Of a stretch of 64,000 bases of DNA, positions 2,992-54,109 are shown one piece after another; within the stretch, counting starts at the first letter, position 1, and each line of letters opens with the position of its first letter. The notes under the pieces are model-generated. The model did no database searches. It saw only the letters and a list, made by a program, of their open reading frames with translations, and was not told the DNA's origin. Origin of the DNA: an uncultured Gemmatimonadales bacterium (GTDB taxonomy: Bacteria; Gemmatimonadota; Glassbacteria; GWA2-58-10); the NCBI GenBank assembly GCA_964548275.1, contig CAZJQI010000008.1:14286-78285 (forward strand), given 5' to 3'. Made by a program: the position numbers and the translations under genes.

Positions 2992-3045
2992 GACGGCCAC
3001 CTCCGATTTGGGACGGATAACGCTTTGTCCTTGTATTGACAGTAG

Positions 3046-3074
3046 CTACCTGTCAGGGTATCTTTTGATTAATA
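3046..3074 (+). promoter_or_regulatory. Possible sigma-70-type promoter (TTGACA-N17-TATCTT) upstream of the ylbF-like gene
   Basis: TTGACA at 3046-3051, 17 nt spacer, TATCTT at 3069-3074. The same stretch overlaps a small hairpin (GACAG...CTGTC), so the assignment is tentative. Confidence 0.3.
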
Positions 3075-3193
3075 AAATGGTTAAAAGATTACATTGAAGT
3101 GGTCGGAGGTCCGTGCCCCTTTGCATTTTGATAAGAGATTTACCCTGAGAGATAAACTGCGATTAGCTTTTCTACCCTAATCCGGAGAGAGTA

Positions 3194-3550
3194 ATGGATT
3201 TAGAAAGTGCAGCAAAAGGACTGGGCAAGCTTATTGTGCAGACCCCGGAATACAAATATTACAATCAGGCTGCCAAGGACGTGGAGGGGGACAATGAATT
3301 GAGTGAATTGATGAAAAATTTGAAAGAACTTGAACAAAAAGTGCTGGAGGCCCAGAAAGAGGGGAAAAAAATCAGCGAGGAACTCAAGGCCGAGTACAAC
3401 AGTTTCCTGGAGAAGGTTCAGGGAAAAACGAAAATCCAGTCGCTCATCGCCACCCAGGAAAATTACCTCAAGCTGATGAGCAAGGTGAATGAAATGATTG
3501 CGGAGGGGATTCGCGAGGGTGCACAAAGCCGGATCATAACCGATTTTTGA
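3194..3550 (+). CDS. YlbF/YmcA family regulatory protein (UPF0342)
   Basis: 118 aa helical protein. N-terminus (LGKLIVQTPEYKYYNQAAKDVEGDNELSELMKNLKEL) matches the YlbF/YheA pattern. Confidence 0.55.
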   Translation: MDLESAAKGLGKLIVQTPEYKYYNQAAKDVEGDNELSELMKNLKELEQKVLEAQKEGKKISEELKAEYNSFLEKVQGKTKIQSLIATQENYLKLMSKVNEMIAEGIREGAQSRIITDF

Positions 3551-3558
3551 GCTGGAAG

Positions 3559-13370: not shown

Positions 13371-13388
13371 CCTTTGCGGTGGTTCCAG

Positions 13389-15476: not shown

Positions 15477-17543
15477 ATGATTTCATTTAAAAAAACCGGC
15501 ACCATATTTTTTTTAACAGCTTTTTGTCTTTTGAATCTTCTGGCTTGTATCCCCGGCCAGAAAGCCAAACCCGCCACCCTGCTCGAAGACGATTTCTCAG
15601 GCCTCGCACCCGGCATGTTCTCCGCGCCCGTGGGCCCGCACACCGAGTACCACTACCTGCCCGAGGCTGCCCCGAAAGGCAACTGGGCCGTGAGCTGTTT
15701 CACCTGGGAAAGTGGAGCCCAGCGGGCCTGGTGGGTGATCGAGGAGGCCGGCGCACACGTGATGACCCAGACATTCGACAGCAGGCAGATGACCCACACC
15801 CACCCGATGGTGATCACAGGCGATACCCTCTGGACAGACTATACCGCAACTATAACATTCGCTGCTGACTCGCGCCGGGACCAGTGCGGAATCCTCTTCC
15901 GCTACCGAAACGACCGCTGCTACTATTTTTTCGGGCTGGACAGGGACAGAGCTCTGCTCAAGATGGTGCGCCATGCCACTGATTTCCACAAGCCGTACGA
16001 AAAAGTGTTGGCCGAGAAAGATTTTGCCTGGGAGACAGGCCGGTATTACACTGCCGTGGTCGAGCTCGAAGGTGATAAAATCAGGGCCTCGATCGAGGGC
16101 GGGCCTGTGCTGGAAGCAGTCGACACGACTTATCCTCGAGGCAAGCTGGGGCTGAGCTCGGATGTTCCCGCACGCTACAAATATGTTAAAGTGACCGCCA
16201 CTGCGAAGGAGAAAAAACGGATCGAAAAGGAGAAAGCCGCCGGAGAAGCCGAACTTGCCAAATTTCGAGCAGCCAACCCAAAGCCTGTGGTCTGGAAAAA
16301 AATCACGACAAAAAATTTCGGCGTGGGCCGGAACCTTCGTTTCGGCGACCTGAACCGCGACGGCACCTGTGACGTGCTGATCGGCCAGGTGCACCATCAC
16401 GCAGCCCCTCGCGACAGCTACAGCGAGGTCAGCTGCCTGACTGCAATGACATTCGACGGTGAAATCCTCTGGCAGATCGGCACACCGGATCCTGAGAAAA
16501 ACCATCTCACCAACGATGTCGCATTCCAGATCCACGACCTGGACGCTGACGGCAGCAACGAGGTGGTCTATACCATGAATATGGAGCTGATTGTAGCTGA
16601 CGGCGCCACCGGCAGAACCAGGTACAAGGCGCCGACCCCGAAAGCAAAGGCTCCCGCTGACGACTTCCCCCGTATCCTCGGCGACTGCCTCTTTTTCTGC
16701 GACCTCAGGGGCACCGGCCACGACAGGGACATTATTATCAAGGACCGCTACTGGCATCTCTGGGCCCTGGATGATAAGCTGAATATCATGTGGGAGGGGG
16801 CATGCAAAACCGGCCACTACCCGTATGCACACGATACAGACAGCGACGGCCGCGATGAGGTGGCGATCGGCTACACTCTTTTCGACCATGACGGCAGAAA
16901 GCTCTGGAGCCTGGACGAGAAAGTCGAAGATCACGCCGATGGGGTTGCAGTGGTCGATTTCAAGGAGAACGAGGAATCACAGTTGCGAATATTCTATGCG
17001 GCAAGCGATGCGGGAGTCTTCTACACAGACCTGGAAGGCAATATCCTTAAACATTACTGGATCGGCCACGGCCAGAACCCGGCAGTTGCGGATTTCAGGC
17101 CGGATATGCCCGGGTTGGAGGCTGTCTCGATTAATTTCTGGGGCAACCAGGGAATTATCCATTTTTTCGACAGTCAGGGTGAAATCTACCGCGATTTCGA
17201 GCCCAACCAGTACGGCAGCATGTGTCTGCCTGTAAACTGGACCGGTGAGCCGGGAGAATATTTCGTCCATTCGCCCAATGTTATCGAAGGGGGGATGTTC
17301 GACGGCTGGGGCAGGCCGGTGGTGATGTTTCCGGATGACGGCCACCCGGACATGTGCAACGCAGTGCTCGATATCACCGGCGACTGCCGCGATGAAGTTG
17401 TGGTCTGGGACCCGCACGAGATTTGGGTTTACACCCAGGATGACAATCCGAAACCGGGCAGGCTGTACAAGCCGGTGCGCAACCCGCTGTATAACTACTC
17501 GAACTACCAGGCAACGGTTTCCCTGCCTGGCTGGTCGGAATAG
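15477..17543 (+). CDS. Secreted lipoprotein: N-terminal beta-sandwich domain, then FG-GAP/VCBS-like calcium-binding beta-propeller (rhamnogalacturonan-lyase PL11-like repeats)
   Basis: Lipoprotein-type signal (FFLTAFCLLNLLAC). Repeated DxDxDG-type loops (DLNRDGTCDVLIG, DLDADGSNEVVY, DTDSDGRDEVAIG, DITGDCRDEVVVWD). A coiled-coil linker (KEKKRIEKEKAAGEAELAKF) separates the two domains. Family assignment is inferred, not proven. Confidence 0.5.
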   Translation: MISFKKTGTIFFLTAFCLLNLLACIPGQKAKPATLLEDDFSGLAPGMFSAPVGPHTEYHYLPEAAPKGNWAVSCFTWESGAQRAWWVIEEAGAHVMTQTFDSRQMTHTHPMVITGDTLWTDYTATITFAADSRRDQCGILFRYRNDRCYYFFGLDRDRALLKMVRHATDFHKPYEKVLAEKDFAWETGRYYTAVVELEGDKIRASIEGGPVLEAVDTTYPRGKLGLSSDVPARYKYVKVTATAKEKKRIEKEKAAGEAELAKFRAANPKPVVWKKITTKNFGVGRNLRFGDLNRDGTCDVLIGQVHHHAAPRDSYSEVSCLTAMTFDGEILWQIGTPDPEKNHLTNDVAFQIHDLDADGSNEVVYTMNMELIVADGATGRTRYKAPTPKAKAPADDFPRILGDCLFFCDLRGTGHDRDIIIKDRYWHLWALDDKLNIMWEGACKTGHYPYAHDTDSDGRDEVAIGYTLFDHDGRKLWSLDEKVEDHADGVAVVDFKENEESQLRIFYAASDAGVFYTDLEGNILKHYWIGHGQNPAVADFRPDMPGLEAVSINFWGNQGIIHFFDSQGEIYRDFEPNQYGSMCLPVNWTGEPGEYFVHSPNVIEGGMFDGWGRPVVMFPDDGHPDMCNAVLDITGDCRDEVVVWDPHEIWVYTQDDNPKPGRLYKPVRNPLYNYSNYQATVSLPGWSE

Positions 17544-17557
17544 AAGAGAGGAAAACC

Positions 17558-19348
17558 TCAGGTGGTCGCCCTTTTCAGGTCATTCTGCTCGGTCTCGTGG
17601 CGGAACTGCTCCAGCCGGTAGATGATCGAGCCGAGAACGAAAGACAGGGCGATCATCAGAATGCCTTTCAGAGGTGAGCCGAGAAAGATCGAACCCAGGC
17701 CGAAAATAAAGGAGAAAAGGCCCCCCGCACCCAGAGCGAAAGAAATGAGGTTAGACGAGAGAGGAGGACCGGCTGGCAATTTCTCCTGGTCCACCTGTGC
17801 GGTGATCCGCTGCCAGCCCGGGCCGCCCGGATTGGCCCTTCTTACGAAGCTTTTCAACTTCTCTTCAGACACGGGATCGGTCAGGAAAGTAACCGATAGC
17901 CATCCTGCCACGCTGAAAAGGCAGATAAAAACGTAGCGCTGCCACTCCGGAAAAACTATTCCGTACATCTCCAGCACGTTGATTGTGATACAGCCTATTA
18001 CCGAAAGTATGTAGGCCGTGATCTCGGTCCAGGCATTAACACGCCACCAGAACCAGCGCGCCAGCCACACCGCGCCGAGCCCGCTGAACAGTTCGGCCAT
18101 GAACTTCCAGGCATCAGCTATAGATTCAGTTATGCTCCAGACGCCGATTCCGGCAACGAGCACCACCATCATTGCCCCGCGGCCCACCCAGATATAGTGC
18201 CGTTGCGAGGCGTTCTTGCGCACGAAGCGCTTGTAGAAATCGTTTATCATGTAGCTCGAGCCCCAGTTGATCAGGGCGTCCACGCTGGACATGAATGCTG
18301 CCAGGAAAGCAGCGAACATGATCCCCCTCATACCGGCGGGAAGGTATTTCTTGATCATCATCGGATAAGCCAGCTTGTGGTCGGTCAGCTCGGGAAAATC
18401 GGCCATGCTGATAAGCGCCACCAGAATCCAGGGCCACATCAGGAAGGCGTAGTAGACAATGTTGAACCACACGCCGGCGAAAAATGCGTGCTTCTCGTTT
18501 TTGGTGGCCATGATCCTCTGGATAAACATACCGTTGCCGTCAGCCTTTTCGCTCGACCACCAGATCACGAAAATGTAAACGAAAAAGAGGGTCCAGGTGA
18601 ACTCGTTCCCTGTCTTGACAAAAGGCTTGACCACTTCCTCGCCCACCGGGACAAAGCTCAACAGCCCCTGGGCGGTCGAGTTGCCGAAAACCTCGATGAG
18701 CCGGGCTTCGATCCCGGAAAAGCCTCCGACTGCGCCGATAGCCACCACTGCGAGGAAAACCGAACCGAAAAAGGCGATGCAGAACTGGATCACTTCATTG
18801 GCAACAATGCCCCAGAGACCGGCTGCCAGGGCGTAGATCATTGTCACCCCGAGCATGACTGCCAGGGCCAGGTACTCGTTCCAGCCCAGCAGCACGGTGA
18901 TAAAACTCTGCATGGCCAGCATGATAAAACCGATATTGAGCGCGCTGAAAGCGATGCCGTAGAAAATGCTCTGGAAGCCTCGCAGGAAACCTGCCGAGCG
19001 GCCCTCGTAGCGTTCCTCGATTATCTCAAGCTCGGTAAGAATTTTCGCCCTTCGCCAGAAACGGACGAAAAGAAAAGTGGCGCAGAGGTTGCTCAGTGCG
19101 AAACACCAGAGGAACCAGTTTCCGGCAATCCCGTTGCGCCGCACCAGCTCGGTGACCATGAAAGGAGTGTCTGCAGCAAAACCCATTGCCGCGATCGAGG
19201 TGCCGGCAACCCACCAGGGCAGGGCTCTTCCGCTCAGGAAAAAATCCTCCATGCTCTTCCCGGCCCGCTTGGTAAAGTAAATCCCCACACCGATCACGAT
19301 AGCGAAATAAGCCACGATTACTATCAGATCTACAACATTCAATTCCAT
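17558..19348 (-). CDS. Sodium:solute symporter family (SSF) transporter with C-terminal extension
   Basis: From ATG 19348: MELNVVDLIVIVAYFAIVIGVGIYFTKRAGKSMEDFFLSGRALPWWVAGTSIAAMGFAADTPFMV is the typical SSF N-terminus. Multiple TM helices follow, plus ~100 aa of extra C-terminal TM segments. Confidence 0.8.
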   Translation of the reverse strand: MELNVVDLIVIVAYFAIVIGVGIYFTKRAGKSMEDFFLSGRALPWWVAGTSIAAMGFAADTPFMVTELVRRNGIAGNWFLWCFALSNLCATFLFVRFWRRAKILTELEIIEERYEGRSAGFLRGFQSIFYGIAFSALNIGFIMLAMQSFITVLLGWNEYLALAVMLGVTMIYALAAGLWGIVANEVIQFCIAFFGSVFLAVVAIGAVGGFSGIEARLIEVFGNSTAQGLLSFVPVGEEVVKPFVKTGNEFTWTLFFVYIFVIWWSSEKADGNGMFIQRIMATKNEKHAFFAGVWFNIVYYAFLMWPWILVALISMADFPELTDHKLAYPMMIKKYLPAGMRGIMFAAFLAAFMSSVDALINWGSSYMINDFYKRFVRKNASQRHYIWVGRGAMMVVLVAGIGVWSITESIADAWKFMAELFSGLGAVWLARWFWWRVNAWTEITAYILSVIGCITINVLEMYGIVFPEWQRYVFICLFSVAGWLSVTFLTDPVSEEKLKSFVRRANPGGPGWQRITAQVDQEKLPAGPPLSSNLISFALGAGGLFSFIFGLGSIFLGSPLKGILMIALSFVLGSIIYRLEQFRHETEQNDLKRATT

Positions 19349-19562
19349 CGGTCTTGGCTCCCTTGCACCAGGTAAGTATCCGGATGTGTGTTTATAAGTT
19401 GCTAATTGAAAGATCAGGCGATAATTTACATTTATGTAGCTTCCAGAACAAGGACAAAAGCTTTCTGTCCCCTGCAAATTGATTTTTAACGACCTCTGCC
19501 TTTAAGTCCATGAATATAGTCGGATACTGATATCAAAAGCCTGGTTAAAAGGAGCATCGGCA

Positions 19563-21872
19563 ATGACCAAAAGCAGTCTGGCAGTGGCTTTAATGTTGAT
19601 TTTTGCGCACTTGAACGATCTCTGCGGCATTGACCTTCATCTCTATGAGGAAAGTTATCTGGACAGAGTATCGGAGCCGGTTACCTGCGGCGTTCCTTTG
19701 GCCCGGGGATACTGCAATTCGGCGGACGAGCTGGTTTTGAAAATCGGTGGTCAGCCTGTGCCGGTTGAAATCCGCGAGGTCAGCCGCTGGCCGGACGGTT
19801 CTTTGCGATGGGTTCATCTTGATTTCCAGGTAAGTGTGCCCGAAGGACGCCTGATTACTGCCTCGCTGGACAAGGGAAAGAGAGCCCCGGTGGATTCAAA
19901 GCTTAAAGTTGAAAAAACACCGCGTGCGATAACTGTCTCCACCGGCAGGCTCAAAGTCGAGGTCTCCCGGAGAAATTTCAATGTCTTCAATCGCATTCAG
20001 GTTCCCAGCGAGGACGGCCGGTATTTCAGGACACTGGTCAATCCTCACAGGCGCGGACTGGTCGCCTGGGCCGGCAAACAGGAATTCCTTGCTGCTAATG
20101 ACACCCTCTCGGTCGTGGAAATCGAAAGCAGCGGGCCAATACGCCTTGTGCTGCGCGCCGAGGGAAACTTTCAGGACACCAACGGCTTGAAACTGTTCCA
20201 CTATATCTGCCGGCTTTATTTCTACAGCGATTCCCCTGTTGTCCGTCTTGCTTTCACTTTTGAAAACCGTGACCCGGTGATCGAAAACAAGGTAGCTCTT
20301 CAGGGCCTCCACGTGGAAATCCCGACCACGATCAGGGGCGCAGGCGGAGCCTATGATATCGGAAAGCCGGGGGGAGATGTTCAGGGAATTTTCCCAAGCA
20401 GGGTTTCAATGGCCTGGGCCCTTGTCAATTCATCCTCCCTGTCCAGTTTTGGAACGGAATCCTTCTTTGAAATCGCCGGCAGCCCGAAAGAGGAAAAATC
20501 CTCTGAACTGGGCTGGATCAGTCTGGGCTCATCCAAAGGCATGGTGGGGGTGGGACTGCGCTACTTCTGGCAGATGTGGCCCTCGATCCTGGAGGTGAAT
20601 GCCAGCGGCCTGATAAGGGCGGGTCTCTTTCCGCAAAGGTTAAACCGCTCGATCGATATCTATTCTGGGGTGGCCCGCACGCATTACCTGCGCTTTGCTT
20701 TTCTTGGCGTGGGCGATCCGGAACGTATAGGCTCCCTGGTGAACTCCTGCCAGCAGCCTCTTCTTGCACTGGCTTCAACCAGCTACTACTGCCAGGAAAC
20801 ACGTGCCTTCGGAAACATCTTCGACCGCGATCTCAGAAATTACCCGAAAGAAAACAGAAAGATTGTAGAACACGTTGATGGCGAGCTGGATTATGGCTAC
20901 AGTCACATGATGAATATGATTGATGAGCGCACCGTGAACGGGGTTACCCGCGACAGTTACGGGTTCCTGAACTGGGGAGACGGATTGCATTATGCATGGG
21001 TGCCCGGAGAGGATAGTGAGTTGAACCTTTCCTGGAACCACCACTATTACGACCTTCCCCATATGAGCTGTATCGAGTTCGCCAGAACCGGCTGTCTCTG
21101 CTGGCTGGATTGTTTCCTTCCGCAAGCCCATCACCTGATGGACGTGCATATGGTTCATTTCGATCCTGAAAATGAGCTTAACGGCCACAATCGCTACTGC
21201 CCGAGTACCGACCATGTTCGCCTGGACCCCAAGGATGCCTCGGATTACCAGACTGCAAAAGTCTACGTTCACCCAAACCAGAACCATTCGAAAACACAGG
21301 GCATGTTCGACCGGTACCTGCTTACAGGTGATGAAAGAAGCTTTGAGGTTGCTCTTAAGGCGCTCGAATTTGCGGCTTCATTCGGCGCTTACGGTGATTT
21401 CAAACAGCCCAGGGGCGCCGCCCACCAGGTGATGACACTGGTTTATGGCTACCGAATAACCGGAGATAAGCGTTACCTCGATATTGCCCGGAGTTCATTC
21501 GAAAAATGGTGGGAGCACTTTCAAACAACCGAAACGAAATTCACCAGGCGCTTTTTCCAGGTCGGGCTGCTGCTCGAGGCCTTTATTGATTTGTACGAGG
21601 AAACCGGGGACAGGAGAATTATCGAATTTACCAGGCAGGCAGTCGATTGGATGCTGGAGAACAGACCGAATGACAGGTTCCCCAACATGAGCCTGGCTCT
21701 GGGTTTCCTGTCTGCCAGGCCCAAGGAGCCGCGCTACACCGAAATGTTGAAAGAGTATCTTATGCTCTGGAAAGGTGTTCAGGGAAATCCGTTCAAGGAT
21801 TTCGCCATGCACGGCAGGAATGTCGCCAGGGCGCTTTATTATCTGTCAAACGAGGCCAGAGGCTCGAAATGA
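19563..21872 (+). CDS. Secreted protein, unassigned family, paralog 1 of a tandem triplet (N-terminal beta-rich region, C-terminal alpha-helical region)
   Basis: 769 aa with signal peptide. Blocks shared with paralogs 2 and 3: EPVTCGVP, VSRWPDGSLRWVHLDFQ, LFHYICRLYF, ENRDPVIENKVALQGLHVEIPT, WGDG(L/M)HYAW, WNHHYYDLPHM, HHLMDVHMVHF, NRYCP.TDHV, HSKTQG(M/L)FDRY..TGDER, FKQPRGAA.QV. Confidence 0.7.
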   Translation: MTKSSLAVALMLIFAHLNDLCGIDLHLYEESYLDRVSEPVTCGVPLARGYCNSADELVLKIGGQPVPVEIREVSRWPDGSLRWVHLDFQVSVPEGRLITASLDKGKRAPVDSKLKVEKTPRAITVSTGRLKVEVSRRNFNVFNRIQVPSEDGRYFRTLVNPHRRGLVAWAGKQEFLAANDTLSVVEIESSGPIRLVLRAEGNFQDTNGLKLFHYICRLYFYSDSPVVRLAFTFENRDPVIENKVALQGLHVEIPTTIRGAGGAYDIGKPGGDVQGIFPSRVSMAWALVNSSSLSSFGTESFFEIAGSPKEEKSSELGWISLGSSKGMVGVGLRYFWQMWPSILEVNASGLIRAGLFPQRLNRSIDIYSGVARTHYLRFAFLGVGDPERIGSLVNSCQQPLLALASTSYYCQETRAFGNIFDRDLRNYPKENRKIVEHVDGELDYGYSHMMNMIDERTVNGVTRDSYGFLNWGDGLHYAWVPGEDSELNLSWNHHYYDLPHMSCIEFARTGCLCWLDCFLPQAHHLMDVHMVHFDPENELNGHNRYCPSTDHVRLDPKDASDYQTAKVYVHPNQNHSKTQGMFDRYLLTGDERSFEVALKALEFAASFGAYGDFKQPRGAAHQVMTLVYGYRITGDKRYLDIARSSFEKWWEHFQTTETKFTRRFFQVGLLLEAFIDLYEETGDRRIIEFTRQAVDWMLENRPNDRFPNMSLALGFLSARPKEPRYTEMLKEYLMLWKGVQGNPFKDFAMHGRNVARALYYLSNEARGSK

Positions 21873-21899
21873 ATAAGCCTGCAAGGCACGGATCGCTCT

Positions 21900-22070
21900 T
21901 TAACCGAAAAAAATTCCTCGAAGCTCTGCTCCGTGGTAGCCCACTCCTGAGACAAACGTAGGGGCAACCGGCAGGTTGCCCGCGGGGTGGGGATGAAATT
22001 GTGGCATCAAATTTATAAAAAGAATTCCGAACAGATACACCGCGGCTTGCCGCGGGGTAGATCATTTGAT
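21900..22070. repeat. Dispersed intergenic element, copy A (between paralogs 1 and 2)
   Basis: Left motif gaaaaaaattcctcgaagctctgctccgtggta, internal hairpin ggcaacc-ggca-ggttgcc, right motif gatacaccgcggcttgccgcggggtagatcatttgat with embedded tight hairpin ccgcggc-tt-gccgcgg. Confidence 0.6.
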
Positions 22071-22107
22071 TTTGATAATATAACTCAGCCGGTAAGGACA
22101 TACGATC

Positions 22108-24417
22108 ATGTTAAAAAACTTGCTTGCCGTTTTAATAGCCCTGTTCATTACTGTTTCATCCGTTGGAGCGGTAAAACTCTCAGTTGAGGAAAGAAGCGGG
22201 ATTGTGCGGGTAAGCGAGCCTGTCACCTGCGGTGTGCCTTTTGCCGAAAGTGCTGTTTATTCGGAAGACAGCCTCGTTTTGCTGAGAGGCACCTTGCCTG
22301 TGCCGGTTGAAATCCGCCAGGTCAGCCGCTGGCCGGACGGCTCTTTGCGCTGGGTTCACCTGGATTTTCAGGCCAGTGCTGGGCCATGGGAAAACGTCCG
22401 CTTTTCTCTGGAAAAAGGTCCCGCTCAGCCTTTAGCTTCCAGTCTCGAGGTAAAGCGTACTGCCCGAGGCTTCACAGTCGAAACCGGAAAGATAAAGGTC
22501 GAGGTGAAAAGGCGGGGTTTCAATGTATTTAACCGCGTCCTGCTTGCCGGGGAAAACGGAGATTTTGTGAAGGAACTTGTTGCTCCGCACAGTCGCGGAC
22601 TGGCCGCCTGGGCCGGTGGAGAGGAGTATCTTTCCGCCAATGACCAGGCCTCGACACTCCGGGTTGAAAGCTCAGGCCTCATGCGCGTGGTGCTGCGGGC
22701 GCAAGGAGAGTTGAAAAACAGATCGGGGAACAAGCTTTTTCATTATATCTGCCGGTTATATTTCTACAACGGCTCTCCAGTTGTCCGCCTTGTCGTGACT
22801 GTGGAAAACAGGAATCCGGTAATCGAAAACAAGGTCGCTCTTCAGGGACTTCACGTGGAAATTCCCACAACAATGGTTGAAAGCGGCACGGTTTTTCATA
22901 TCGGCGGCCGGGATAGACATCTGGAGGGCCGGTTTGCCGGTTACGGTTCCAATGCTTTTATTCTGGCGCCCTCCTCGGAGCGCTACACTTACGGTGGGGT
23001 GGTGGAAAGTTGGCCCGGCGGCAATGCCAAGACCGAAAGCTCGGACCGGCTGGGCTGGATTGGTATTGCAAGCTCTCGCGGCGCGGTGGCGGTTGGCTTG
23101 CGCGACTTCTGGCAGATGCATCCTTCAAGCCTGGAAGCAGCCTCGGATCAGGGCCTGCTGCTGGTCGGCCTTTTCCCCCTGCGGCTCGGCAGGTCGATTG
23201 ATATCTATTCCGGAGTGTCTCGTACCCACTACCTGCGCTTTGCCTTCACCAGCCAAAACGATCCCGAGTTGCTGTGCTCGCTGACCAGAGCCTGCCAGAA
23301 ACCTCTTACTGCTGTGGCCTCACCGGCCTATTACTGCCGGAAAAGCCGAGCTTTCGGCAAACTGGTAGAGCGAGAATTGTCTCTGTTCCCGGAAGAACAC
23401 CACGCGCTGGTTACCACGGTGCAGAGAGAAACGGACGGGGGTCTGGCCAATCTGCTCTCGCTGGTGGAATCCCGCACTAAAAACGGCGTGACAGTGGAGG
23501 GTTACGGCTATCTGGACTGGGGAGACGGAATGCATCATATCTGGGTGCCTGGAGTGAAAGACCCGCATAACATCTCCTGGAATGGTCATTACTATGATCT
23601 TCCTCATACCTGCTGCCTGGAATACGTGAGCACAGGCAACTGGCGGTACTACGACTTTTTCCTCAGCCGGGCCCAGCATTTGATGGATGTCCATATCGCG
23701 CATTTCGAGCCAGGTAACAAGCTTAACGGTGCCAACCGCTACTGCCCGCCCACCGACCATGTGAGAATCGATCCCAGAAGGCGGGGAGATTTCACCTCCG
23801 CCAGGGTTTACGTATCAAACTCGACCAATCACCACAAGACCCAGGGGCTTTTCGACCGTTTTTATCTTACCGGCGATGAACGGGCGCTCGAGGTGGCCCT
23901 GAAGGCTGTGGAATTCGCCAATTCTTTCGGGGCCTACCGGGATTTCAAACAGCCGCGCGGGGCTGGTTTCCAGGTCCTATCCCTGCTCGAGGCCTACCGT
24001 TACAGCGGCGAAGCCAGATACCTGGAAACCGCGAAAATGACATTCGAGGCCTGGTGGGAGCATTTCAGCACCACGGAGACCAAGTTCACCCGGGGCTATT
24101 TCATGGTCGGGTACCTGCTGGAGGCTTTCGTGGACTACTACGAGATTACCGGGGACAGCCGGGCTGTGGAATTCATCCGCCAGGCCGTGGACTGGATGAG
24201 CGCCAGCCGCCCGAACGACTTATTCTCCAACATGACACTGAGTATCGCCTTTCTGGCGCACCAGACCGGGGAGACCGAATATATCGAACTGGCGAAAAAA
24301 CACCTTTCCCGCTGGCACGGTGTCTGGGAAAACGCTTTCAAGGATTTCGGCCTTCACGGCAGGGGCATTGCCAGGGCGCTCTACTATTTTTCCGATCAAG
24401 CCAGAGGAAGCGATTGA
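22108..24417 (+). CDS. Secreted protein, unassigned family, paralog 2 of tandem triplet
   Basis: 769 aa with signal peptide. Colinear with paralog 1 along its entire length (by eye roughly 55-65% identical) and carries the same conserved blocks. Confidence 0.7.
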   Translation: MLKNLLAVLIALFITVSSVGAVKLSVEERSGIVRVSEPVTCGVPFAESAVYSEDSLVLLRGTLPVPVEIRQVSRWPDGSLRWVHLDFQASAGPWENVRFSLEKGPAQPLASSLEVKRTARGFTVETGKIKVEVKRRGFNVFNRVLLAGENGDFVKELVAPHSRGLAAWAGGEEYLSANDQASTLRVESSGLMRVVLRAQGELKNRSGNKLFHYICRLYFYNGSPVVRLVVTVENRNPVIENKVALQGLHVEIPTTMVESGTVFHIGGRDRHLEGRFAGYGSNAFILAPSSERYTYGGVVESWPGGNAKTESSDRLGWIGIASSRGAVAVGLRDFWQMHPSSLEAASDQGLLLVGLFPLRLGRSIDIYSGVSRTHYLRFAFTSQNDPELLCSLTRACQKPLTAVASPAYYCRKSRAFGKLVERELSLFPEEHHALVTTVQRETDGGLANLLSLVESRTKNGVTVEGYGYLDWGDGMHHIWVPGVKDPHNISWNGHYYDLPHTCCLEYVSTGNWRYYDFFLSRAQHLMDVHIAHFEPGNKLNGANRYCPPTDHVRIDPRRRGDFTSARVYVSNSTNHHKTQGLFDRFYLTGDERALEVALKAVEFANSFGAYRDFKQPRGAGFQVLSLLEAYRYSGEARYLETAKMTFEAWWEHFSTTETKFTRGYFMVGYLLEAFVDYYEITGDSRAVEFIRQAVDWMSASRPNDLFSNMTLSIAFLAHQTGETEYIELAKKHLSRWHGVWENAFKDFGLHGRGIARALYYFSDQARGSD

Positions 24418-24537
24418 ACGGCAATCCCGATATGTTATCCTTTTGCCTGAAGTAAAATTAAGGCTTGATAGAAATTTTGAGAACAACTACAGCAGATCCA
24501 AATTCAGGAAATCTCGCTGAATGAATGGGAGTCGGTT

Positions 24538-27486
24538 ATGAGAAACAGGCTGCTGCAGGCAGGTGTTTTGTTATTTTCACTGGCATCGGTTTTACATGCC
24601 ATAGAACTGACAGTGGCTGAACGCAGCGGAATCGGCCGGATAAACGAGTCGGTCACCTGCGGCGTTCCCCTGCCCGTGAGCTGGGTAAATTCAACTGATG
24701 AACTGGTGCTAAGGGTTTTCGGAGAAATCGTGCCTTGCGAATTCAGGGAAGTCGCTCACTGGCCAGACGGCTCTATTCGTTGGGTGCATCTGGATTTCCA
24801 GGCATCCGTGGAGGCCAATGCAAGGCTCTCCCTCTGGCTGGACAAGGGAACTCCGGCACAGTTTGATTCCAGGCTCGAGGTGGTTGAAGAACAGGGCAAG
24901 GTAACAGTATCTACCGGGAGAATCAGGGCCGAGGTTCTCGCGGCTGGATTTAACGTGTTCAACAGTGTCTGGATCGATACCGGATCGGATGGAGATTACG
25001 ACAAACAGCTGGTAAGCACGCACGACAGGGGTCTGGTCATGTGGGCAGAAGGCCAGGAGTACCTGAGTTCAGCTGACCAGAATACAGAATTAACTGTGGA
25101 AAGCCAGGGAACCATGCGGGTGGTGCTCAAAGCAGAGGGTGATCTCAAGAGCACCACCGGCGCAACCGGATTCCATTTTATCTGCCGCCTGTACTTTTTC
25201 AATAACTCCCCCCTTGTTCGCCTGGCTTACACCTTCGAAAACCGCAGCCCTTATCTGGAGGGCCGTGAGGACATGGTGACTCTGGAAGGCTTGCACGTGG
25301 AGCTGCCCACAGCAGATTCGCATTCCGAGTTCTTCCTCGGACTGCCTGATCAGGATCTGAAAGCGACATCTTCTGAGGCAGGAGGCAATCAAATCTATCT
25401 CGGCACCAGCGCTACGAACCAGTTGATCTACTACCATGGAGAAAGCCAGGACAACGTTGGTAATCCCAAGGCGCTGAAAACAGACCGCATCGGCTGGATC
25501 GGGATGGATGTTGTTGAAAGCGGGCAAGTAAAATCACTGGTTGGCATGGGCCTGCAGGATTTCTGGCAGATGCATCCAAGCACGCTGGAGGTGGATGCCG
25601 AAACCGGATTGATTACCGCCGGGCTTATCCCGTATAGACTTGACACTCCCATCGATATTTACTCCGGGGTGGCCCGCACCCATTATCTGCGTTTCGTCTT
25701 TTTGCACGAGGAGGAAGCCTCCAACCTGGGAAAGATGCTCGCCGCCTGCCAGAAACCCTTGCTTGCAATAGCCGAGCCTGAATATTACTGCAGGGACAGC
25801 AATACGTTCGGTAAGATAATGGAACGAAATCCCGCACTCTATCCGCCCGAGCACCTGGAGGAGGTTCAGCGCGTTGAGAGAGAGCTCGATCTGGGCCTGG
25901 AGGACCAGCTGCGCAAGCTCGACAACCGCACGAAAAACGATGTAACCTGGGAGAGTTACGGCTTTCTCAACTGGGGTGACGGCATGCACTACGCCTGGGA
26001 ACCCGGGGTTCACGTTGCGCGAAATATCGCCTGGAACCACCACTATTATGACCTTCCGCACATGAGCAGTGTCGAGTTCGTGCGCACAGGGGATTACCGC
26101 TGGCTGGATTATTTTCTCTCCCGTGCCCACCACCTGATGGATGTGCACATGGTTCATTTCGGTCCAGGCAAATACCTGAACGGCGCCAACCGCTACTGCC
26201 CTCCAACCGACCACGTGCGCAGAGATCCCACAGATGATAGCGATTACACTACTGCTCCGGTTTACGTATCACCTTACACCAATCACCACAAGACTCAAGG
26301 GTTGTTCGAGCGCTGGTATTTCACCGGGGATGAACGCAGCCTGGACTGCGCTCTCCGGGGAGCTGAATTCGCCAGATCGTTCGGCGGGTATCCTGATTAC
26401 AAGCAGCCGCGCGGCGCGGCTTTCCAGGTCCTGACCCTGCTTGCCGCCTACCAGTGCACCGGCGACGATAAATACCTCCTGACTGCAAAAACCACTTTCG
26501 ACACCTGGTACAGCTATTTCCGCAGCACGAGCATCAAGTTCACCCAGGGATATTTCATGGTGGGATTTCTGCTCGAGGCTTTTATCGACTACTATGAAAT
26601 CAGCGGCGACAGCAATGTCGTAGATTTTGTCAAGCAAGCAGTGGACTGGATGCGCGCCAACAGGCCAGAAGAAAAATATTCGAACATGGCGCACGGTATC
26701 GGTTTCCTGGCCGCACAACTCGAAGACCCTTCCTATACGACATTACAAAAAGAATACCTCACAAGCTGGTACGGCACCTGGTCAAACGCCTACAAGGATT
26801 TCGGCCTGAACGGCAGGAGTCTCGCCCGCGCACTGTATTACCTTTCTTATGAAGGACAGGGTTACGAACTGCGGATGACCGGAGACTACGATGATGACGA
26901 AGCCCTGACAATCAGCGACCTGGTCGCACTGCTGGTCAAAGGGATGCAGGATGAGTCAAACCCGGAGATAGATTTCAACCGGGACGGCAAGTACTCTATC
27001 ATGGATGCACTCGCCCTGCTGATATATATCCGCGGGCACAGCGCAGGTGTTTCACTGGCCGCAGCAGGCAGGGATCTGAACTCGAAATTCCGGCTCACCC
27101 CGGTAGAGCTGGCTGAGCTGTTGGAACAACTGGTCAAGCTGGATCTTACTGAAAGTGAATGGGAAGCGTTAAATTCGCTACTAGACCGTGAGCAACTGCC
27201 CAGGGCGTTCACCCTGTCGCAGAACCGGCCGAACCCGTTCAACCCCACCACGACTATCAGTTTCGGCATCCCCCAGGGGCGTGCTCTGGAAGTGAAGCTG
27301 GTTGTGTATAACCTTAGAGCGATGCTGGTAAAGGTGCTTGTGGAAGAGGTAAAAGAGCCGGGATATTACAGTGTGCTCTGGGACGGCACTGATAACCAGG
27401 GAAAAGCGATTGGGTCCGGGGTGTATTTTTACCGCCTCAGTGCAGGCGACTTTTCTGCTGTGCGCAAAATGGTTCTGATGAAATAA
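24538..27486 (+). CDS. Secreted protein, paralog 3 of tandem triplet, with added C-terminal dockerin-like module and T9SS C-terminal sorting domain
   Basis: First ~780 aa are colinear with paralogs 1 and 2. A dockerin-like stretch follows (DYDDDEALTISDLVALLVKGM...DFNRDGKYSIMDALALLIYIRG). The last ~85 aa (PNPFNPTTTISFGIPQGRALEVKLVVYNLRAMLVKVL...GVYFYRLSAGDFSAVRKMVLMK) match the T9SS / Por secretion tail pattern. Confidence 0.75.
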   Translation: MRNRLLQAGVLLFSLASVLHAIELTVAERSGIGRINESVTCGVPLPVSWVNSTDELVLRVFGEIVPCEFREVAHWPDGSIRWVHLDFQASVEANARLSLWLDKGTPAQFDSRLEVVEEQGKVTVSTGRIRAEVLAAGFNVFNSVWIDTGSDGDYDKQLVSTHDRGLVMWAEGQEYLSSADQNTELTVESQGTMRVVLKAEGDLKSTTGATGFHFICRLYFFNNSPLVRLAYTFENRSPYLEGREDMVTLEGLHVELPTADSHSEFFLGLPDQDLKATSSEAGGNQIYLGTSATNQLIYYHGESQDNVGNPKALKTDRIGWIGMDVVESGQVKSLVGMGLQDFWQMHPSTLEVDAETGLITAGLIPYRLDTPIDIYSGVARTHYLRFVFLHEEEASNLGKMLAACQKPLLAIAEPEYYCRDSNTFGKIMERNPALYPPEHLEEVQRVERELDLGLEDQLRKLDNRTKNDVTWESYGFLNWGDGMHYAWEPGVHVARNIAWNHHYYDLPHMSSVEFVRTGDYRWLDYFLSRAHHLMDVHMVHFGPGKYLNGANRYCPPTDHVRRDPTDDSDYTTAPVYVSPYTNHHKTQGLFERWYFTGDERSLDCALRGAEFARSFGGYPDYKQPRGAAFQVLTLLAAYQCTGDDKYLLTAKTTFDTWYSYFRSTSIKFTQGYFMVGFLLEAFIDYYEISGDSNVVDFVKQAVDWMRANRPEEKYSNMAHGIGFLAAQLEDPSYTTLQKEYLTSWYGTWSNAYKDFGLNGRSLARALYYLSYEGQGYELRMTGDYDDDEALTISDLVALLVKGMQDESNPEIDFNRDGKYSIMDALALLIYIRGHSAGVSLAAAGRDLNSKFRLTPVELAELLEQLVKLDLTESEWEALNSLLDREQLPRAFTLSQNRPNPFNPTTTISFGIPQGRALEVKLVVYNLRAMLVKVLVEEVKEPGYYSVLWDGTDNQGKAIGSGVYFYRLSAGDFSAVRKMVLMK

Positions 27487-27523
27487 ATCGGCTTAATCCT
27501 TTGCATCCGGAGGCAAGTGCCAA

Positions 27524-29668
27524 ATGAAAAAGTTTCCGGGTTTTCAAAAATTACTTTTTCTCCTCGCTTTCTTTTCCATTTTCTACGTCAGATTCTCCTT
27601 CGCCGTAGAGGTATCCGAAGGACACCCACGCCTGTTTTTCCGGGACAGCGCCTGGGGAGAACGCTCGATCACCACGGAACAACTCAGGCAGCGGGCCAAT
27701 GACCCGCGCTACGCGGCCTATGTGAACAGGCTCACTTACAGCTCCTGCAACGTGGCTCTTAAAGCGATTCTGTTTGACGATACTCAGGCTGCCCGGGAAT
27801 GCATCTCCATGATGGAAAGCAACTTCGATTTCGACGGCACTACAACCGACGGCGAGCTGTTGATGTGGCGGGCCATGGCTTTCGACTGGCTTTACAACCA
27901 TCCGGATTTCACCGAGACTCACAAACAGAATGTGATCCGGAAACTCGCTCAGGGGGCGAGCTGGTGCAGGAGTGAGTATATCGGACAGGGTCCGCACGTT
28001 TTTCATACACGTATGTATGCGTTCGCTCTCGGTACAGCAATAGCGGGCCTTGCGCTCAAGGGCCACCACCAGGATGCGGATTTTTACATCGACTGGGCTG
28101 ACTCGATATTCACTCACCACCTTTTCCCTGCCCGCCACCTCCAGGGCGGCTCTGTGCACAACAGCCTGGCCTACGGCCGCAGGTACGTCATGTGGCATTG
28201 CGGCCATTTCATGAGTGCCTGGTATTCAGCCACCGGTCAGGACAAATGGAAAACGGTCCGCGAGCAGCAGGATGACTGGGCCTGGCGCGAGGCGGAATTT
28301 ATCATGTATGGGAGGCAGCCGGACGGGCTGCTGGTGCGTTACGGCGACTGTTTCAGACGCACCTCCGAGCGGTTCTCTTTCCGGGTGATCGGCGAGCGGG
28401 CCTTTGCCTGCAGCAAGCCGATAGGGATGAATTACCTCCACTACCTGTTCCAGACCCAGGCGAATATGACGGACAACCGCGTGGTGGAGGAAGGCAACGC
28501 CTATCATGTTCTTCTCTATTGGGACGCAGACGATCCAGGCCGCTCGTTTAAAACTCTGCCCACCAGAACCCTGTTCAGTCCCCAGGGCACCGGCATGGTT
28601 TTCTGGCGCAGCGGCTGGGGCGAGGACGATACGTTTATCTTTTTCAAGTGCGGCAACTATTTCGGCAACCACGGCCATTTTGACCAGGGCCACCTCGAGG
28701 TTTTCCATCGCGCACCGCTGTTGATCGAGGGCGGAGCCTACGAGGGCGATTTCGACAGCAATTACAGGCTTAACTATTACCGCAAAACGGTCGCCCATAA
28801 CTTGATCCTGGCGGTAAACCCCGCCCTGGCTCAGGATGAGGGAGGACAAAGGATTTTCAGCAACCAGGGCGAACCATCAGTGGAAAGCTACCTGGGTAAC
28901 CCGATTAACGAAACCGGAGATATTATTGATTACCGGGACCAGGGGAACTGGTGTTACGTTTCAGGGAGTTTCGGCAGCGCTTACGATAACAGTAGGATAA
29001 TTAGGGCCGTGCGCGAGGTGGCCTGGATCGGCGAGCGCTACCTGGTGGTTGTGGACAATATCAAACTGGGCAGCAGTTCTTTTCTGCCAAAGGTGATCTG
29101 GCATTATACGGTCACCCCCGTAATCGAGGGAAACCGATTTACAGTCACCGACCGCGGCGGCAGGGCGGTAGTCACCGTGCTGGCGCCCCCGGAGGCGACA
29201 ATCGACACAATTCAGGCTTACCGGATCGGCACCGCATATTACCCTCCGCCTGATCCGCGTCCCTCGATAGGGGTGGGGCGAACCGAAATCAGCGTGCCCC
29301 AGCCGGGAGTGGCCGATTACACCTTTGTCCAGGTAATCGACGTGGCCGATGAAGGGATCGCCCCCGGTAGCCTGGCTTTCGAATCAGATGAAACCGAGGG
29401 AACTCTGATTGTGACTTTGCCGGTAGGCACTTTCCGCCTGAGCGGCAGCCCGCTCGAACGCACGGCAGTCGCGTTCGAGGCTGCCGCGCTGGAACCGAGA
29501 GGCGATTTCAGCGGCAATGGCACCGTGGGTATCGAAGATCTGGTGAGCCTGCTTCTGCGCGCCCTTGAAAACACCAACGATCCTATGCTGGATTTCAACC
29601 AGGACGGACACTATTCGATCCTGGACGCCATTGCGCTGCTGCTATATATCCACTCGCAGGGGAGCTAG
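27524..29668 (+). CDS. Heparinase II/III-like polysaccharide lyase with C-terminal dockerin-like module
   Basis: Signal peptide. N-terminal alpha-helical (alpha/alpha toroid-like) region. GNYFGNHGHFDQGHLEVFHRAPLLIEGG matches the heparinase II/III C-terminal GH.H.D signature. C-terminus RGDFSGNGTVGIEDLVSLLLRAL...DFNQDGHYSILDAIALLLYI is a dockerin-type duplicated loop-helix. Confidence 0.75.
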   Translation: MKKFPGFQKLLFLLAFFSIFYVRFSFAVEVSEGHPRLFFRDSAWGERSITTEQLRQRANDPRYAAYVNRLTYSSCNVALKAILFDDTQAARECISMMESNFDFDGTTTDGELLMWRAMAFDWLYNHPDFTETHKQNVIRKLAQGASWCRSEYIGQGPHVFHTRMYAFALGTAIAGLALKGHHQDADFYIDWADSIFTHHLFPARHLQGGSVHNSLAYGRRYVMWHCGHFMSAWYSATGQDKWKTVREQQDDWAWREAEFIMYGRQPDGLLVRYGDCFRRTSERFSFRVIGERAFACSKPIGMNYLHYLFQTQANMTDNRVVEEGNAYHVLLYWDADDPGRSFKTLPTRTLFSPQGTGMVFWRSGWGEDDTFIFFKCGNYFGNHGHFDQGHLEVFHRAPLLIEGGAYEGDFDSNYRLNYYRKTVAHNLILAVNPALAQDEGGQRIFSNQGEPSVESYLGNPINETGDIIDYRDQGNWCYVSGSFGSAYDNSRIIRAVREVAWIGERYLVVVDNIKLGSSSFLPKVIWHYTVTPVIEGNRFTVTDRGGRAVVTVLAPPEATIDTIQAYRIGTAYYPPPDPRPSIGVGRTEISVPQPGVADYTFVQVIDVADEGIAPGSLAFESDETEGTLIVTLPVGTFRLSGSPLERTAVAFEAAALEPRGDFSGNGTVGIEDLVSLLLRALENTNDPMLDFNQDGHYSILDAIALLLYIHSQGS

Positions 29669-30186
29669 CCGTCCGGATATTTTTTCAGCCGCGAAAACTC
29701 CTCCTCGAAATTCGGGGTGAATGTGCCGCTTCCCAGCACGCGCTCGATTTCCGCGAAACTCCAGAACCGGCCCTCGTCGATCTCCGAGCGCAGTATCCGC
29801 ATCGGCCCCTTGTAGTAGCAGAGATATGAGGTCACCAGCTCTGTCTCCACCTCTGAACGCCAGATATAGCTGTAAAGAAACTGGATATCCACGCCTGCAA
29901 TACCGAGTTCTTCGCTCATCTCGCGTTTTGCCGCCTCAAGGACACTTTCCCCCGGAGCCACATGCCCGCCCACCGAGGTATCCCACTTGCCGGGCTGGAT
30001 ATCTTTGTCCGCGCTTCTTTTCTGAAGGAATATCCTCTGCTCTCCGGTTTTCTTCTCGATATCGAGCACCAGCACGTGCACGCTGCGATGGATGAGCTCC
30101 GGGTTGCCGTGCACCTCGCTGCGCGGCGCGTGACCGATAATTCGCCCGCTCCGGTCAACTATGTCAAATATCTCGTCAACGCTCAA
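29665..30186 (-). CDS. NUDIX hydrolase
   Basis: Nudix box GGHVAPGESVLEAAKREMSEELGI. TTG start overlaps the stop of the upstream small gene. Confidence 0.8.
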   Translation of the reverse strand: MSVDEIFDIVDRSGRIIGHAPRSEVHGNPELIHRSVHVLVLDIEKKTGEQRIFLQKRSADKDIQPGKWDTSVGGHVAPGESVLEAAKREMSEELGIAGVDIQFLYSYIWRSEVETELVTSYLCYYKGPMRILRSEIDEGRFWSFAEIERVLGSGTFTPNFEEEFSRLKKYPDG

Positions 30187-30539
30187 TTGTCAGGCTCCAG
30201 AGCACGAATCTCACCGGTTTGCTGAATGACCACCGGGAAGCCCTCCAGTGTGGAAGGAATCTTTTTCGTCAATTCGGGTGTCTTTTCGATCACCAGAACT
30301 TTAATACACAACTCGCCCTTATCTTCTCCGAGAGCTGTTCCTACCACCCCGGGAATGGACATCAGCTCCGGAGTGTGGGCTTTGAGCACTTCCTGGATGG
30401 TTTTTGAAGGCATTGTATTTTCTCTTTGTTGAATTTTATCTCTTGTACAGGCCATAAAGCTAAGGGCCGCGGCTATCATGCCTGTGCACAAAACAGCGAT
30501 TTTGATTCGAGAAACCATGGAAAACTTCTCTTCAAGCAC
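30183..30539 (-). CDS. Small secreted protein homologous to the N-terminal (pro-domain-like) region of the adjacent S1 protease
   Basis: 118 aa with signal peptide. IPGVVGTALGEDKGELCIKVLVIEKTPELTKKIPSTLEGFPVVIQQTGEIRAL aligns with residues ~60-110 of the protease (ADVVGTATGLGPAGTPAVLVLTKVPGVAGIPRSLDGVPVVVKVTGEIVAL). Confidence 0.5.
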   Translation of the reverse strand: MLEEKFSMVSRIKIAVLCTGMIAAALSFMACTRDKIQQRENTMPSKTIQEVLKAHTPELMSIPGVVGTALGEDKGELCIKVLVIEKTPELTKKIPSTLEGFPVVIQQTGEIRALEPDN

Positions 30540-32130: not shown

Positions 32131-32520
32131 AATAGGTGCCTTAGCAATTGTCTGCCCTTTCAGTTTAAAGCCGGGAAAAATCCCCCTCTCCGGGATAAAA
32201 TCTTTCCTGATCCTGCCGGAATCTTAAAGTGCTTTTCCGCGGCAAATTTTGCTTACGGGGCTTCTTCTTATTTGAAATGCTTAAGGAGAACCCCTATTTT
32301 TCTAATTGGAGGCGAAAACTCCATTGCAAGGAGCGTTTATATTTATATTTGAATTTCGTAAACCTGTAACCATGGATAAAGTCAATTTTCTATTTTGATT
32401 CTGGCTAAAGTGAAGGTATTTTTCATTTAGCGAGTTATTTTCCTGAGCTTCTCATATTTAACTTTGCGTGGGGAAATGATCCGTTCCCGGGATTGAGAAA
32501 ACCCAGGAGATGGCTTTAAA

Positions 32521-32735
32521 GTTTAATCGAGAAGAATTCCCCGAAGCTTTGCTCCATAGTAAACAACCCGGGGATCGGCAGGTAATCCCCATTAACAAAA
32601 GGGAATCAATATGTAATCCCCCTAAAAAAGGGGAAGACAGGGGGTTGTCTTGATGTGTTCGCCCTCGGAGGAAATAAGATCGACCAAATTCATCATTATG
32701 ATACTCCGCGGCTTGCCGCTGGGCAGCTCATTTAT
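32521..32735. repeat. Dispersed intergenic element, copy B (upstream of mtaB)
   Basis: Left motif tttaatcgagaagaattccccgaagctttgctccatagtaaa. Internal units taatccccattaacaaaaggga / taatccccctaaaaaagggga / agacagggggttgtc. Right motif gatactccgcggcttgccgctgggcagctcatttatt. Confidence 0.6.
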
Positions 32736-32836
32736 TTTCGCTTTATAATTGGTTTAATTTAAATTAATTAGGACTCTTAACCTGAAGTGATTTATCAGGT
32801 ACAATTGGCCTTTCTGTTTCCGGGATACGATAGGGA

Positions 32837-34153: not shown

Positions 34154-34176
34154 CTTTGGATCATAGACAGCGAATT

Positions 34177-46166: not shown

Positions 46167-46191
46167 CTGTTTCGTCCTTTACTTTGGTTTC

Positions 46192-54085: not shown

Positions 54086-54109
54086 GGCCTGGATGTGGAG
54101 GCGAGCTCT

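Follow-up and report, generated by a model that had tools for sequence, protein, structure and literature searches.

Polysaccharide lyase family 26 (PL26) holds, to our knowledge, a single characterised enzyme, the secreted exo-rhamnogalacturonan lyase PcRGLX of Penicillium chrysogenum (PDB 5XQ3/5XQG/5XQJ/5XQO), in which a RIFT barrel, a beta-sandwich and an alpha/alpha toroid follow one another along the chain, and the domain models of the family in Pfam are PF19501 (PcRGLX_1st), PF21345 (PcRGLX_2nd) and PF21346 (PcRGLX_3rd). Here we analyse a 64-kb stretch of DNA from an uncultured Gemmatimonadales bacterium of the Glassbacteria lineage (contig CAZJQI010000008.1), hereafter referred to as the window, in which three consecutive paralogous genes for secreted PcRGLX-like proteins are followed by a gene for a heparinase II-like lyase. 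The three paralogs belong to a divergent and uncharacterised clade of the known PcRGLX/PL26 superfamily, and are not a new family in the categorical sense, nor a PL26 expansion of the ordinary kind. They are most likely glycan-degrading enzymes that act on an acidic polysaccharide, with both lyase and hydrolase chemistries in play.

All four open reading frames (ORFs) lie on the + strand, at the positions given in an earlier note on this DNA. According to the ORF list and its translations, paralog 1 (19563-21872) and paralog 2 (22108-24417, the copy used for modelling) encode 769 aa each, paralog 3 (24538-27486; ORF, translation and Pfam) encodes 982 aa with a PcRGLX-like core and a C-terminal extension, and the heparinase II-like lyase (27524-29668; ORF, NCBIfam and PDB) encodes 714 aa with a dockerin-like C-terminus at 29501-29638. 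The paralogs are colinear over their full length, as the note had described; the 55-65% identity that it had estimated by eye is corrected here to 56% (paralogs 1 and 2), 51% (1 and 3) and 53% (2 and 3), yet this 51-56% range is far above chance. All the motifs that it had listed are present in the translations with small variants in single copies, namely EPVTCGVP (ESVTCGVP in paralog 3), SRWPDGSLRWVHLDFQ (AHWPDGSIRWVHLDFQ in paralog 3), WGDGxHYAW (WGDGMHHIW in paralog 2), WNHHYYDLPHM (WNGHYYDLPHT in paralog 2), HHLMDVHMVHF (QHLMDVHIAHF in paralog 2), NRYCPxTDHV in all three paralogs, and a block with the consensus KTQGxF[DE]Rxx[LF]TGDER. No fourth copy was detected by tblastn within the window. 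Paralog 1 is a three-domain PcRGLX-like protein with a Sec-type signal peptide as read from the sequence (N-terminus MTKSSLAVALMLIF...), other N-termini, for example MLKNLLAVLIALFITVSSVGA|VKL, likewise resemble typical Sec signal peptides by eye, and the view of the locus as a diversified array of secreted paralogs is upheld. Promoter and terminator scans of positions 19300-30200 yielded no more sites than shuffled sequence and so give no basis for an operon claim. Public assemblies already contain the proteins of the window, and paralog 3 is identical to one such public protein (P0015).

A search with the family profile returned one solved homolog, PcRGLX (E = 9.3e-33), and hhalign comparison of the family with a PL26 alignment gave a probability of 100 and E = 3.8e-53 over 678 columns. 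In Pfam, all three paralogs match PcRGLX_2nd (E = 1e-14 to 1e-18) and PcRGLX_1st (E ~1e-7) above the gathering score, with values of 1.4e-16 and 6.9e-8, respectively, for paralog 1, which also matches GH127_cat at E = 1.6e-7; PcRGLX_3rd has no match at E <= 1 in any paralog, and the C-terminus matches PF07944 instead. An AlphaFold2 model of paralog 2 built from 44 family sequences (of very high confidence; predicted local distance difference test score, pLDDT, 94.5; predicted template-modelling score, pTM, 0.93) places strands over residues 22-404 and 13 helices over residues 429-759, and Foldseek aligns it to PcRGLX with a TM score of 0.74 and E = 2.5e-30. The paralogs thus share the three-domain PL26 fold: the signal peptide is followed by the RIFT barrel, then by the beta-sandwich in the middle and, toward the C-terminus, by the (alpha/alpha)6 toroid, in the same order as in PcRGLX, and the beta-rich N-terminal and helical, (alpha/alpha)6-type C-terminal parts proposed in the earlier note are recovered in the model. 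When the toroid was modelled by itself (paralog 2 residues 405-769), the loops at about 455-495 and 545-575 fell to pLDDT values of ~40-58, versus >90 in the full-length model; these long loops of the toroid are probably ordered through contact with the beta-sandwich.

The earlier note could assign them to no family and reasoned that confident known-family matches over the conserved blocks would reduce them to an ordinary expansion; such matches do extend over the PL26-like fold and N-terminal domains, and they extend neither to PcRGLX_3rd nor to a Tyr-Glu-Asp loop of PL26 described below, so that an uncharacterised clade remains. The blocks regarded as distinctive are likewise in part superfamily motifs common to PL26 (WPDGSLxW, RLYFY, FWQxxP, GxART, YGxxxxGDxxH, HxxxVxxxH and GDER), and it is the HYYDLPH, NRYCPxTDHVR and NHHKTQG blocks that are without a PL26 counterpart in the hhalign comparison.

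The paralogs are only 14-18% identical to PcRGLX and ~130 residues shorter, and a PL26 hidden Markov model (HMM) matches them at E = 1e-36 to 1e-39 in fragments only, the best of which covers 25% of the model. The same break is seen in a database search with precomputed Pfam matches, where none of the ~43 close relatives at E < 1e-89 carries PF21346 and the three intermediate relatives (E = 1e-32 to 2.5e-18) also lack it. Proteins named as the PL26 'exo-rhamnogalacturonan lyase family' start at E = 3e-17, mostly score ~1e-13 and are 21-30% identical; the listed PL26 proteins all carry PF21346 except the last (P0120), and P0001-P0046 are all without it. At the level of residues, the break centres on a ~30-residue excursion of the PL26 beta-sandwich that bears Tyr437, Glu438 and Asp439 and is lost from the clade. 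Tyr437 is taken as catalytic because a single change, Tyr437 to Phe, within ...LEITYEDWEPGF... (chain numbering), separates the sequence of the substrate complex with a tetrasaccharide (5XQO) from that of the wild type (5XQ3). Tyr437 and Glu438 are invariant among 39 PL26 sequences and each of the three residues is at least 95% conserved in the family, whereas all 43 core clade members examined have gaps at columns 437-439, both by hhalign and in a 201-sequence MAFFT alignment. The spacing between the flanking FW(Q) and G-ART anchors has a median of 34 residues in the clade versus 68 in PL26, and in paralog 2 the hhalign gap leaves a short turn at residues 356-369 (FPLRLGRSIDIYSG; 23173-23214, + strand) in place of the loop.

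Further PL26-invariant positions are vacant or exchanged. Asp413, His418, Arg550, Asp556 and Lys624 of PL26 have no counterpart in the clade, and the clade has Tyr495 and His529 where PL26 has the invariant Glu566 and Asp600 (clade residues numbered as in paralog 2). Tyr495 falls in the WNGHYYDLPH block (residues 491-500; 23578-23607, + strand), which the alignment and DSSP place at the start of the first toroid helix (495-509). Downstream, the conservation tables highlight H524-x2-D527-x-H529-x2-H532 followed by the loop NRYCPPTDHVR...NHHKTQG (residues 524-580; 23677-23847, + strand), a loop of about 40 residues that is the clade's own and has no PL26 counterpart. Residues kept in common with PL26 are Asp473, His476, His524, His532, His551, Arg372, Arg508 and Arg592, the last being the Arg of GDER. 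In the paralog 2 model, Tyr495 and Tyr496 stand at the start of helix 495-509, His524, Asp527, His529 and His532 are at the end of helix 512-529, the clade-specific loop spans 542-578, His575 and Lys577 precede the helix at 579, and Gln615 and Arg617 precede that at 616; because the hairpin helices alternate in the model, we infer that the conserved positions share a single toroid face, the one that meets the beta-sandwich.

One of these positions is polymorphic. Residue 508 of paralog 2 (23629-23631) is Ser (AGC) in the window and Arg in all other core members; the position is Arg in 94% of the wider clade, the equivalent Arg579 is present in 100% of PL26, and the codon in the closest metagenome-assembled genome (MAG) is AGG. 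Among 12 cluster members at least 90% identical, Ser and Arg each occur in 6 of 12, and because this even split runs over independent assemblies it is a real population polymorphism at a superfamily-invariant position.

The clade is large. An exhaustive profile search of 1.84 billion representative proteins returned 9,014 matches at E <= 1e-3, 3,081 at E <= 1e-30 and more than 150 full-length matches below 1e-96, and members are found in Gemmatimonadota/Glassbacteria, Planctomycetota, Acidobacteriota, Chloroflexi, Fibrobacterota and others. The RYCPxTDHVR signature itself occurs in MAGs of Candidatus Glassbacteria/Gemmatimonadota, Acidobacteriota, Planctomycetota (Pirellulales) and Chloroflexi. 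One Glassbacteria MAG shares 92% identity with the window, whose paralogs fall into three separate ortholog clades, each with orthologs at 80-96% and deeper members at ~63-65%; that of paralog 1 includes P0007 (96%) and gene 1 of locus L001 (86%), and that of paralog 3 consists of proteins of 830-990 aa. The array is therefore old and diversified, as each copy has its own orthologs and clade, and the recent event hinted at by the word 'triplication' in the earlier note is ruled out. Elsewhere in the wider clade, members in other phyla also occur as adjacent pairs (1586-3952 and 3970-6288 in L031) and fused to other domains (the 1,521-aa product of 9968-14533 in L023 contains a BNR_4 domain), and many of the representatives reach 1,000-1,600 aa.

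The C-terminal extension of paralog 3 adds two modules to the three-domain core. Residues 782-828 (26881-27021, + strand) form a dockerin-like module with a sub-threshold Pfam Dockerin_1 match (E = 0.16, 12.7 bits) and the calcium-loop motif DFNRDGKYSIMDA at 26971, and residues 895-982 (27220-27483, + strand) form a FlgD-Ig or type IX secretion system (T9SS)-type C-terminal sorting domain by Pfam and NCBIfam, matching FlgD_ig slightly under threshold (E = 1e-5, 25.8 bits), TIGR04183 at E = 8e-4 and the PorU C-terminal region in NCBIfam at E = 3.9e-8. Orthologs of paralog 3 carry precomputed PF13860 and PF18962 matches. Because it combines a dockerin-like module with a T9SS-type sorting domain, paralog 3 probably ends up either exposed at the cell surface or set free from it.

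The fourth gene of the array is a distant relative of heparinase II (PL21; Pedobacter heparinus, PDB 2FUQ/3E80) that has a dockerin-like C-terminus of its own. It aligns with 2fuq at E = 8e-14 over residues 261-435, where its NHGHFDQGH corresponds to NHQHQDAGA and its TVAHN to TIAHN, so that the NHxHxDxG block is kept, as is the histidine of AHN further downstream; the His-x-His block of heparinase II provides the catalytic His and a zinc ligand. The NCBIfam HepB model matches residues 54-609 (E = 4.4e-23) with 81 bits versus an equivalog cutoff of 600, the HepC model gives 10 bits versus 700, and Hepar_II_III_C has no Pfam match at E <= 1 in the window protein, although syntenic orthologs match it. 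The heparinase-like assignment made in the earlier note is upheld, and the dockerin assigned there amounts to two dockerin-type calcium loops, DFSGNGTVGIEDL and DFNQDGHYSILDA, at 29504 and 29591, with a sub-threshold Dockerin_1 score (E = 0.29, 11.8 bits).

Upstream of the array lie a sodium:solute symporter (SSF; 17558-19477, - strand; Pfam SSF E = 1.8e-37, TIGR00813 E = 4.8e-39), a PL11-like (RGL11_C) FG-GAP beta-propeller with an N-terminal 3-keto-disaccharide-hydrolase-like domain (15477-17543, + strand; RGL11_C E = 3.3e-10, YesW 2z8r E = 2.8e-4) and a glycoside hydrolase family 123 (GH123)-like or beta-N-acetylgalactosaminidase-like protein with a dockerin (13374-15419, + strand; GH123_cat E = 1.8e-5, PDB 8k2f E = 3.8e-8). 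The dockerin of the last is above threshold (Dockerin_1 E = 2.1e-5, 25.0 bits versus 22.9) with calcium loops at 13497 and 13605, and D-x-[DNS]-x-[DN]-G calcium loops are found in this protein, paralog 3 and the heparinase-like protein. An NCBIfam search of the module neighbours assigned SSF at superfamily level only and gave no match for the PL11-like or GH123-like proteins. Comparison of Glassbacteria loci defines a module of the PL11-like beta-propeller, which is kept in syntenic loci, the SSF symporter and 1-3 PcRGLX-like genes, usually with a heparinase II/III-like gene (5 of the 6 module loci compared, the window included). In the window the GH123-like protein is a further part of the module. 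The symporter adjoins the family gene in L001, L003, L006, L026 and L027, and the PcRGLX-like copy number is one in L026 and L027, two in L001, L003 and L006, and three in the window. The module is bordered by BshC-DivIVA-PNP and, at its other end, by NUDIX-MiaB-like-ComEC, a GH140-type apiosidase lies near it in L001, and in L028 a family member adjoins a CE15 glucuronoyl esterase, a short-chain dehydrogenase and a GFO/IDH oxidoreductase. The polysaccharide-degradation setting suggested by the earlier note is upheld.

Two observations concern the module loci themselves. Locus L006 (DATKXY010000103.1), from a MAG labelled 'archaeon', carries the PL11-like gene, the symporter, two PcRGLX-like genes, a heparinase-like gene with FlgD_ig and a MiaB-like gene; this is the bacterial module known from the Glassbacteria genomes, and the MAG has probably been assigned to the wrong taxon. 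In the window, positions 32837-34153 and 34156-35502 encode adjacent paralogs of the MiaB/RimO-type radical-SAM methylthiotransferases (UPF0004 + Radical_SAM), which have in common a 36-nt block around CxxxCxxC, and the pair is kept in 4 of 5 syntenic Glassbacteria loci, L026 being without it.

For the function of the paralogs we propose, at what we judge to be an even chance, that they are glycan-degrading and likely beta-eliminating PcRGLX-like enzymes of the His/Tyr lyase type that act on an acidic polysaccharide with a rewired active site. The module would depolymerise a uronic-acid-containing polysaccharide and import the small products, and the PcRGLX-like proteins would cut oligosaccharides in a pocket where the toroid face meets the beta-sandwich, lined by the PL26-kept Asp473, His476, His524, His532, His551, Arg372, Arg508 and Arg592. 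The role of the deleted Tyr-Glu-Asp loop would be taken over by the clade-specific Tyr495/Tyr496, His529 and the loop R544-Y545-C546...H551...H575-K577, with beta-elimination as the preferred chemistry and Tyr495/Tyr496 in place of the lost Tyr437, and each of the three lineages of paralogs would have a subsite specificity of its own. We infer the location of the active site, the lyase chemistry and the uronate-containing substrate alike. Among 201 superfamily sequences, none has Tyr at both 437 and 495, 94 have only Tyr495, 53 only Tyr437 and 54 neither, a mutual exclusion that is suggestive even though the raw count takes no account of phylogeny. A further-reaching reading, which we judge somewhat less likely than not, is that the clade constitutes a new family at the level of the CAZy database, in which the PL26 scaffold is retained, the catalytic Tyr has moved from the beta-sandwich loop to the first toroid helix (HYYD), a histidine-rich and possibly metal-dependent centre (His476, His524, His529, His532, His551, His575 and Cys546) is formed, the substrate is an acidic glycan other than rhamnogalacturonan I (RG-I), and three lineages with different specificities operate in one module.

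Several points weigh against the proposed lyase. The catalytic role of Tyr437 in PcRGLX is itself deduced only from the Tyr-to-Phe change in the substrate-complex entry, the takeover by Tyr495/Tyr496 is read from the alignment and helix geometry, and the loss of the sole experimentally implicated catalytic residue of PL26 could equally mean a switch to hydrolysis. Furthermore, the clade has no characterised member, and its database names are all 'hypothetical' or the GH127-derived 'beta-L-arabinofuranosidase domain-containing'. The contexts of distant relatives add little on the substrate: the Pirellulales loci L018 and L023 have only generic glycan-related or unrelated neighbours that give no substrate clue, L009 shows a TonB-dependent receptor and oxidoreductases only, and the P0121, P0124 and P0138 contigs are too short for such clues.

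The main rival, which we regard as possible but on the unlikely side, is that the paralogs are glycoside hydrolases that use the pocket of the six-hairpin toroid, either as analogues of the GH88/GH105-like unsaturated-uronyl hydrolases that finish the products of the PL11-like and heparinase-like enzymes, or as another exo-glycosidase. The loss of the PL26 catalytic Tyr loop agrees with this, as do the GH88/GH105-like appearance of the toroid, the partial GH127 match and a Glyco_hydro_88 match in Pfam that, however, stays below the gathering score (best in paralog 1, E = 3.6e-5, 23.4 bits versus 26.6; the others are weaker). The locus also encodes two putative lyases, none of its scanned ORFs reaches the threshold for GH88 or GH105, and conserved acidic residues are on hand in Asp473, Asp497, Asp527, Asp555, Asp590 and Glu672. 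The toroid likeness is nevertheless at the level of the fold only, and epimerases score equally well; unlike the paralogs, GH88/GH105 enzymes (UGL 1VD5, YteR 1NC5) and AGE/cellobiose 2-epimerases are single-domain proteins of 330-400 aa with no RIFT barrel or beta-sandwich. The only whole-chain homolog of the paralogs is a lyase, of whose pocket four His, one Asp and three Arg are kept, and the surface-sorting and dockerin-like modules of paralog 3 suggest that it attacks polymer extracellularly; the usual sites for processing lyase products are the periplasm and the cytoplasm.

That the paralogs are ordinary PL26 exo-rhamnogalacturonan lyases, diverged in sequence only and releasing unsaturated GalA-Rha from RG-I, appears improbable. 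The whole-chain fold and the N-terminal Pfam domains would fit, and so would the conservation in the module of a PL11-like gene, PL11 being a rhamnogalacturonan lyase family, and the nearby GH140-type apiosidase in L001; this reading is opposed by the deletion of the Tyr437-Glu438-Asp439 loop, the five PL26-invariant residues without a counterpart, the missing PcRGLX_3rd match, the fragmentary HMM match and the low identity to PcRGLX.

It is more doubtful still, and in our view very unlikely, that the paralogs have no catalytic role and serve at the surface as glycan-binding or structural proteins that arose from an enzyme fold. Such a role could be reconciled with the loss of the known catalytic Tyr, with the dockerin-like and sorting modules of paralog 3 and with the Arg/Ser polymorphism of paralog 2, but dozens of polar residues (His, Asp, Arg and Tyr) on one toroid face are invariant across the three old lineages and across phyla, a pattern typical of an active site.

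The automatic annotation of some relatives points to GH127. Like the paralogs, GH127/GH146 enzymes (HypBA1, PDB 3WKW; PF07944) contain an (alpha/alpha)6 toroid, PF07944 scores above its gathering threshold (30-44 bits versus 24.9), and NCBI names P0004 and P0315 'beta-L-arabinofuranosidase domain-containing protein'. The match, however, covers only profile positions ~123-250 of 376, which amount to two to three generic hairpin helices, and the NCBIfam aceric acid hydrolase model reaches 12.6 bits (E = 0.032) versus a cutoff of 950. In GH127, as in the HypBA1 structure, the toroid comes first and the beta-sandwich domains after, and the Cys3-Glu zinc site, with a cysteine nucleophile, lies near the C-terminal end of the toroid (HypBA1 Glu338, Cys340, Cys417 and Cys418). 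There is no cysteine in paralog 2 residues 690-769, which align past the PF07944 match where this site would be expected, and the only conserved cysteines of the toroid part are Cys410 and Cys546, the latter being Asn in some members. Given the partial match, the reversed domain order, the absent Cys site and the absence of GH127 structures from the best structural matches, a GH127/GH146-type beta-L-arabinofuranosidase is barely credible and the reading is rejected.

The window also contains several repeats. The dispersed intergenic element reported in the earlier note between paralogs 1 and 2 is real, with conserved ends that recur in the window: one copy (21897-22072) lies in the 235-bp gap between the two genes, with its 5' end in repeat family D10 and its 3' end in D13, others with conserved 5' and 3' ends lie at 32520-32738 and 46190-46663 (the longest), and a 5' end alone lies at 52408-52441. 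All copies are in + orientation, with TTTAATCGAAAAGAATTCCCCGAAGCTCTGCTCC conserved at the 5' end and GATACTCCGCGGCTTGCCGCGGGGTAG.TCATTTAT at the 3' end around a variable interior rich in GC hairpins. Rfam has no match at its gathering threshold over the whole window and none at E <= 1 for the element, and reading it as a known RNA is rejected on these grounds; it may be a MITE-like (miniature inverted-repeat transposable element) or REP-like (repetitive extragenic palindromic) sequence or a regulatory RNA. Inside the longest copy, positions 46369-46545 form a tandem array of ~30-nt units, each with the hairpin CCCCCCTATCAAGGGGGG / CCTCCTAACAAGGGGG (family D3). Elsewhere, the first 78 nt of the adjacent genes 52910-54085 and 54095-54871 are 87% identical (blocks 52894-52971 and 54094-54171), which suggests a common N-terminal or signal-peptide region in the two genes, and a 47-nt block at 53971-54017 recurs with 89% identity at 60045-60091, 6 kb downstream, families D11 and D18 covering both repeats.

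The paralogs reveal neither a new fold nor a new kind of genetic system. They do belong to a large, multi-phylum clade that is annotated just as 'hypothetical' or, misleadingly, as beta-L-arabinofuranosidase, and that compactly illustrates how an active site is rewired while the three-domain scaffold around it is conserved. The clade could reasonably be put forward as a new CAZy family or subfamily, which knowledge of its substrate and of its Tyr-loop-free mechanism would probably found. The same knowledge would correct the automatic annotation and contribute to an understanding of acidic-polysaccharide use by uncultured bacteria of sediments and soils.

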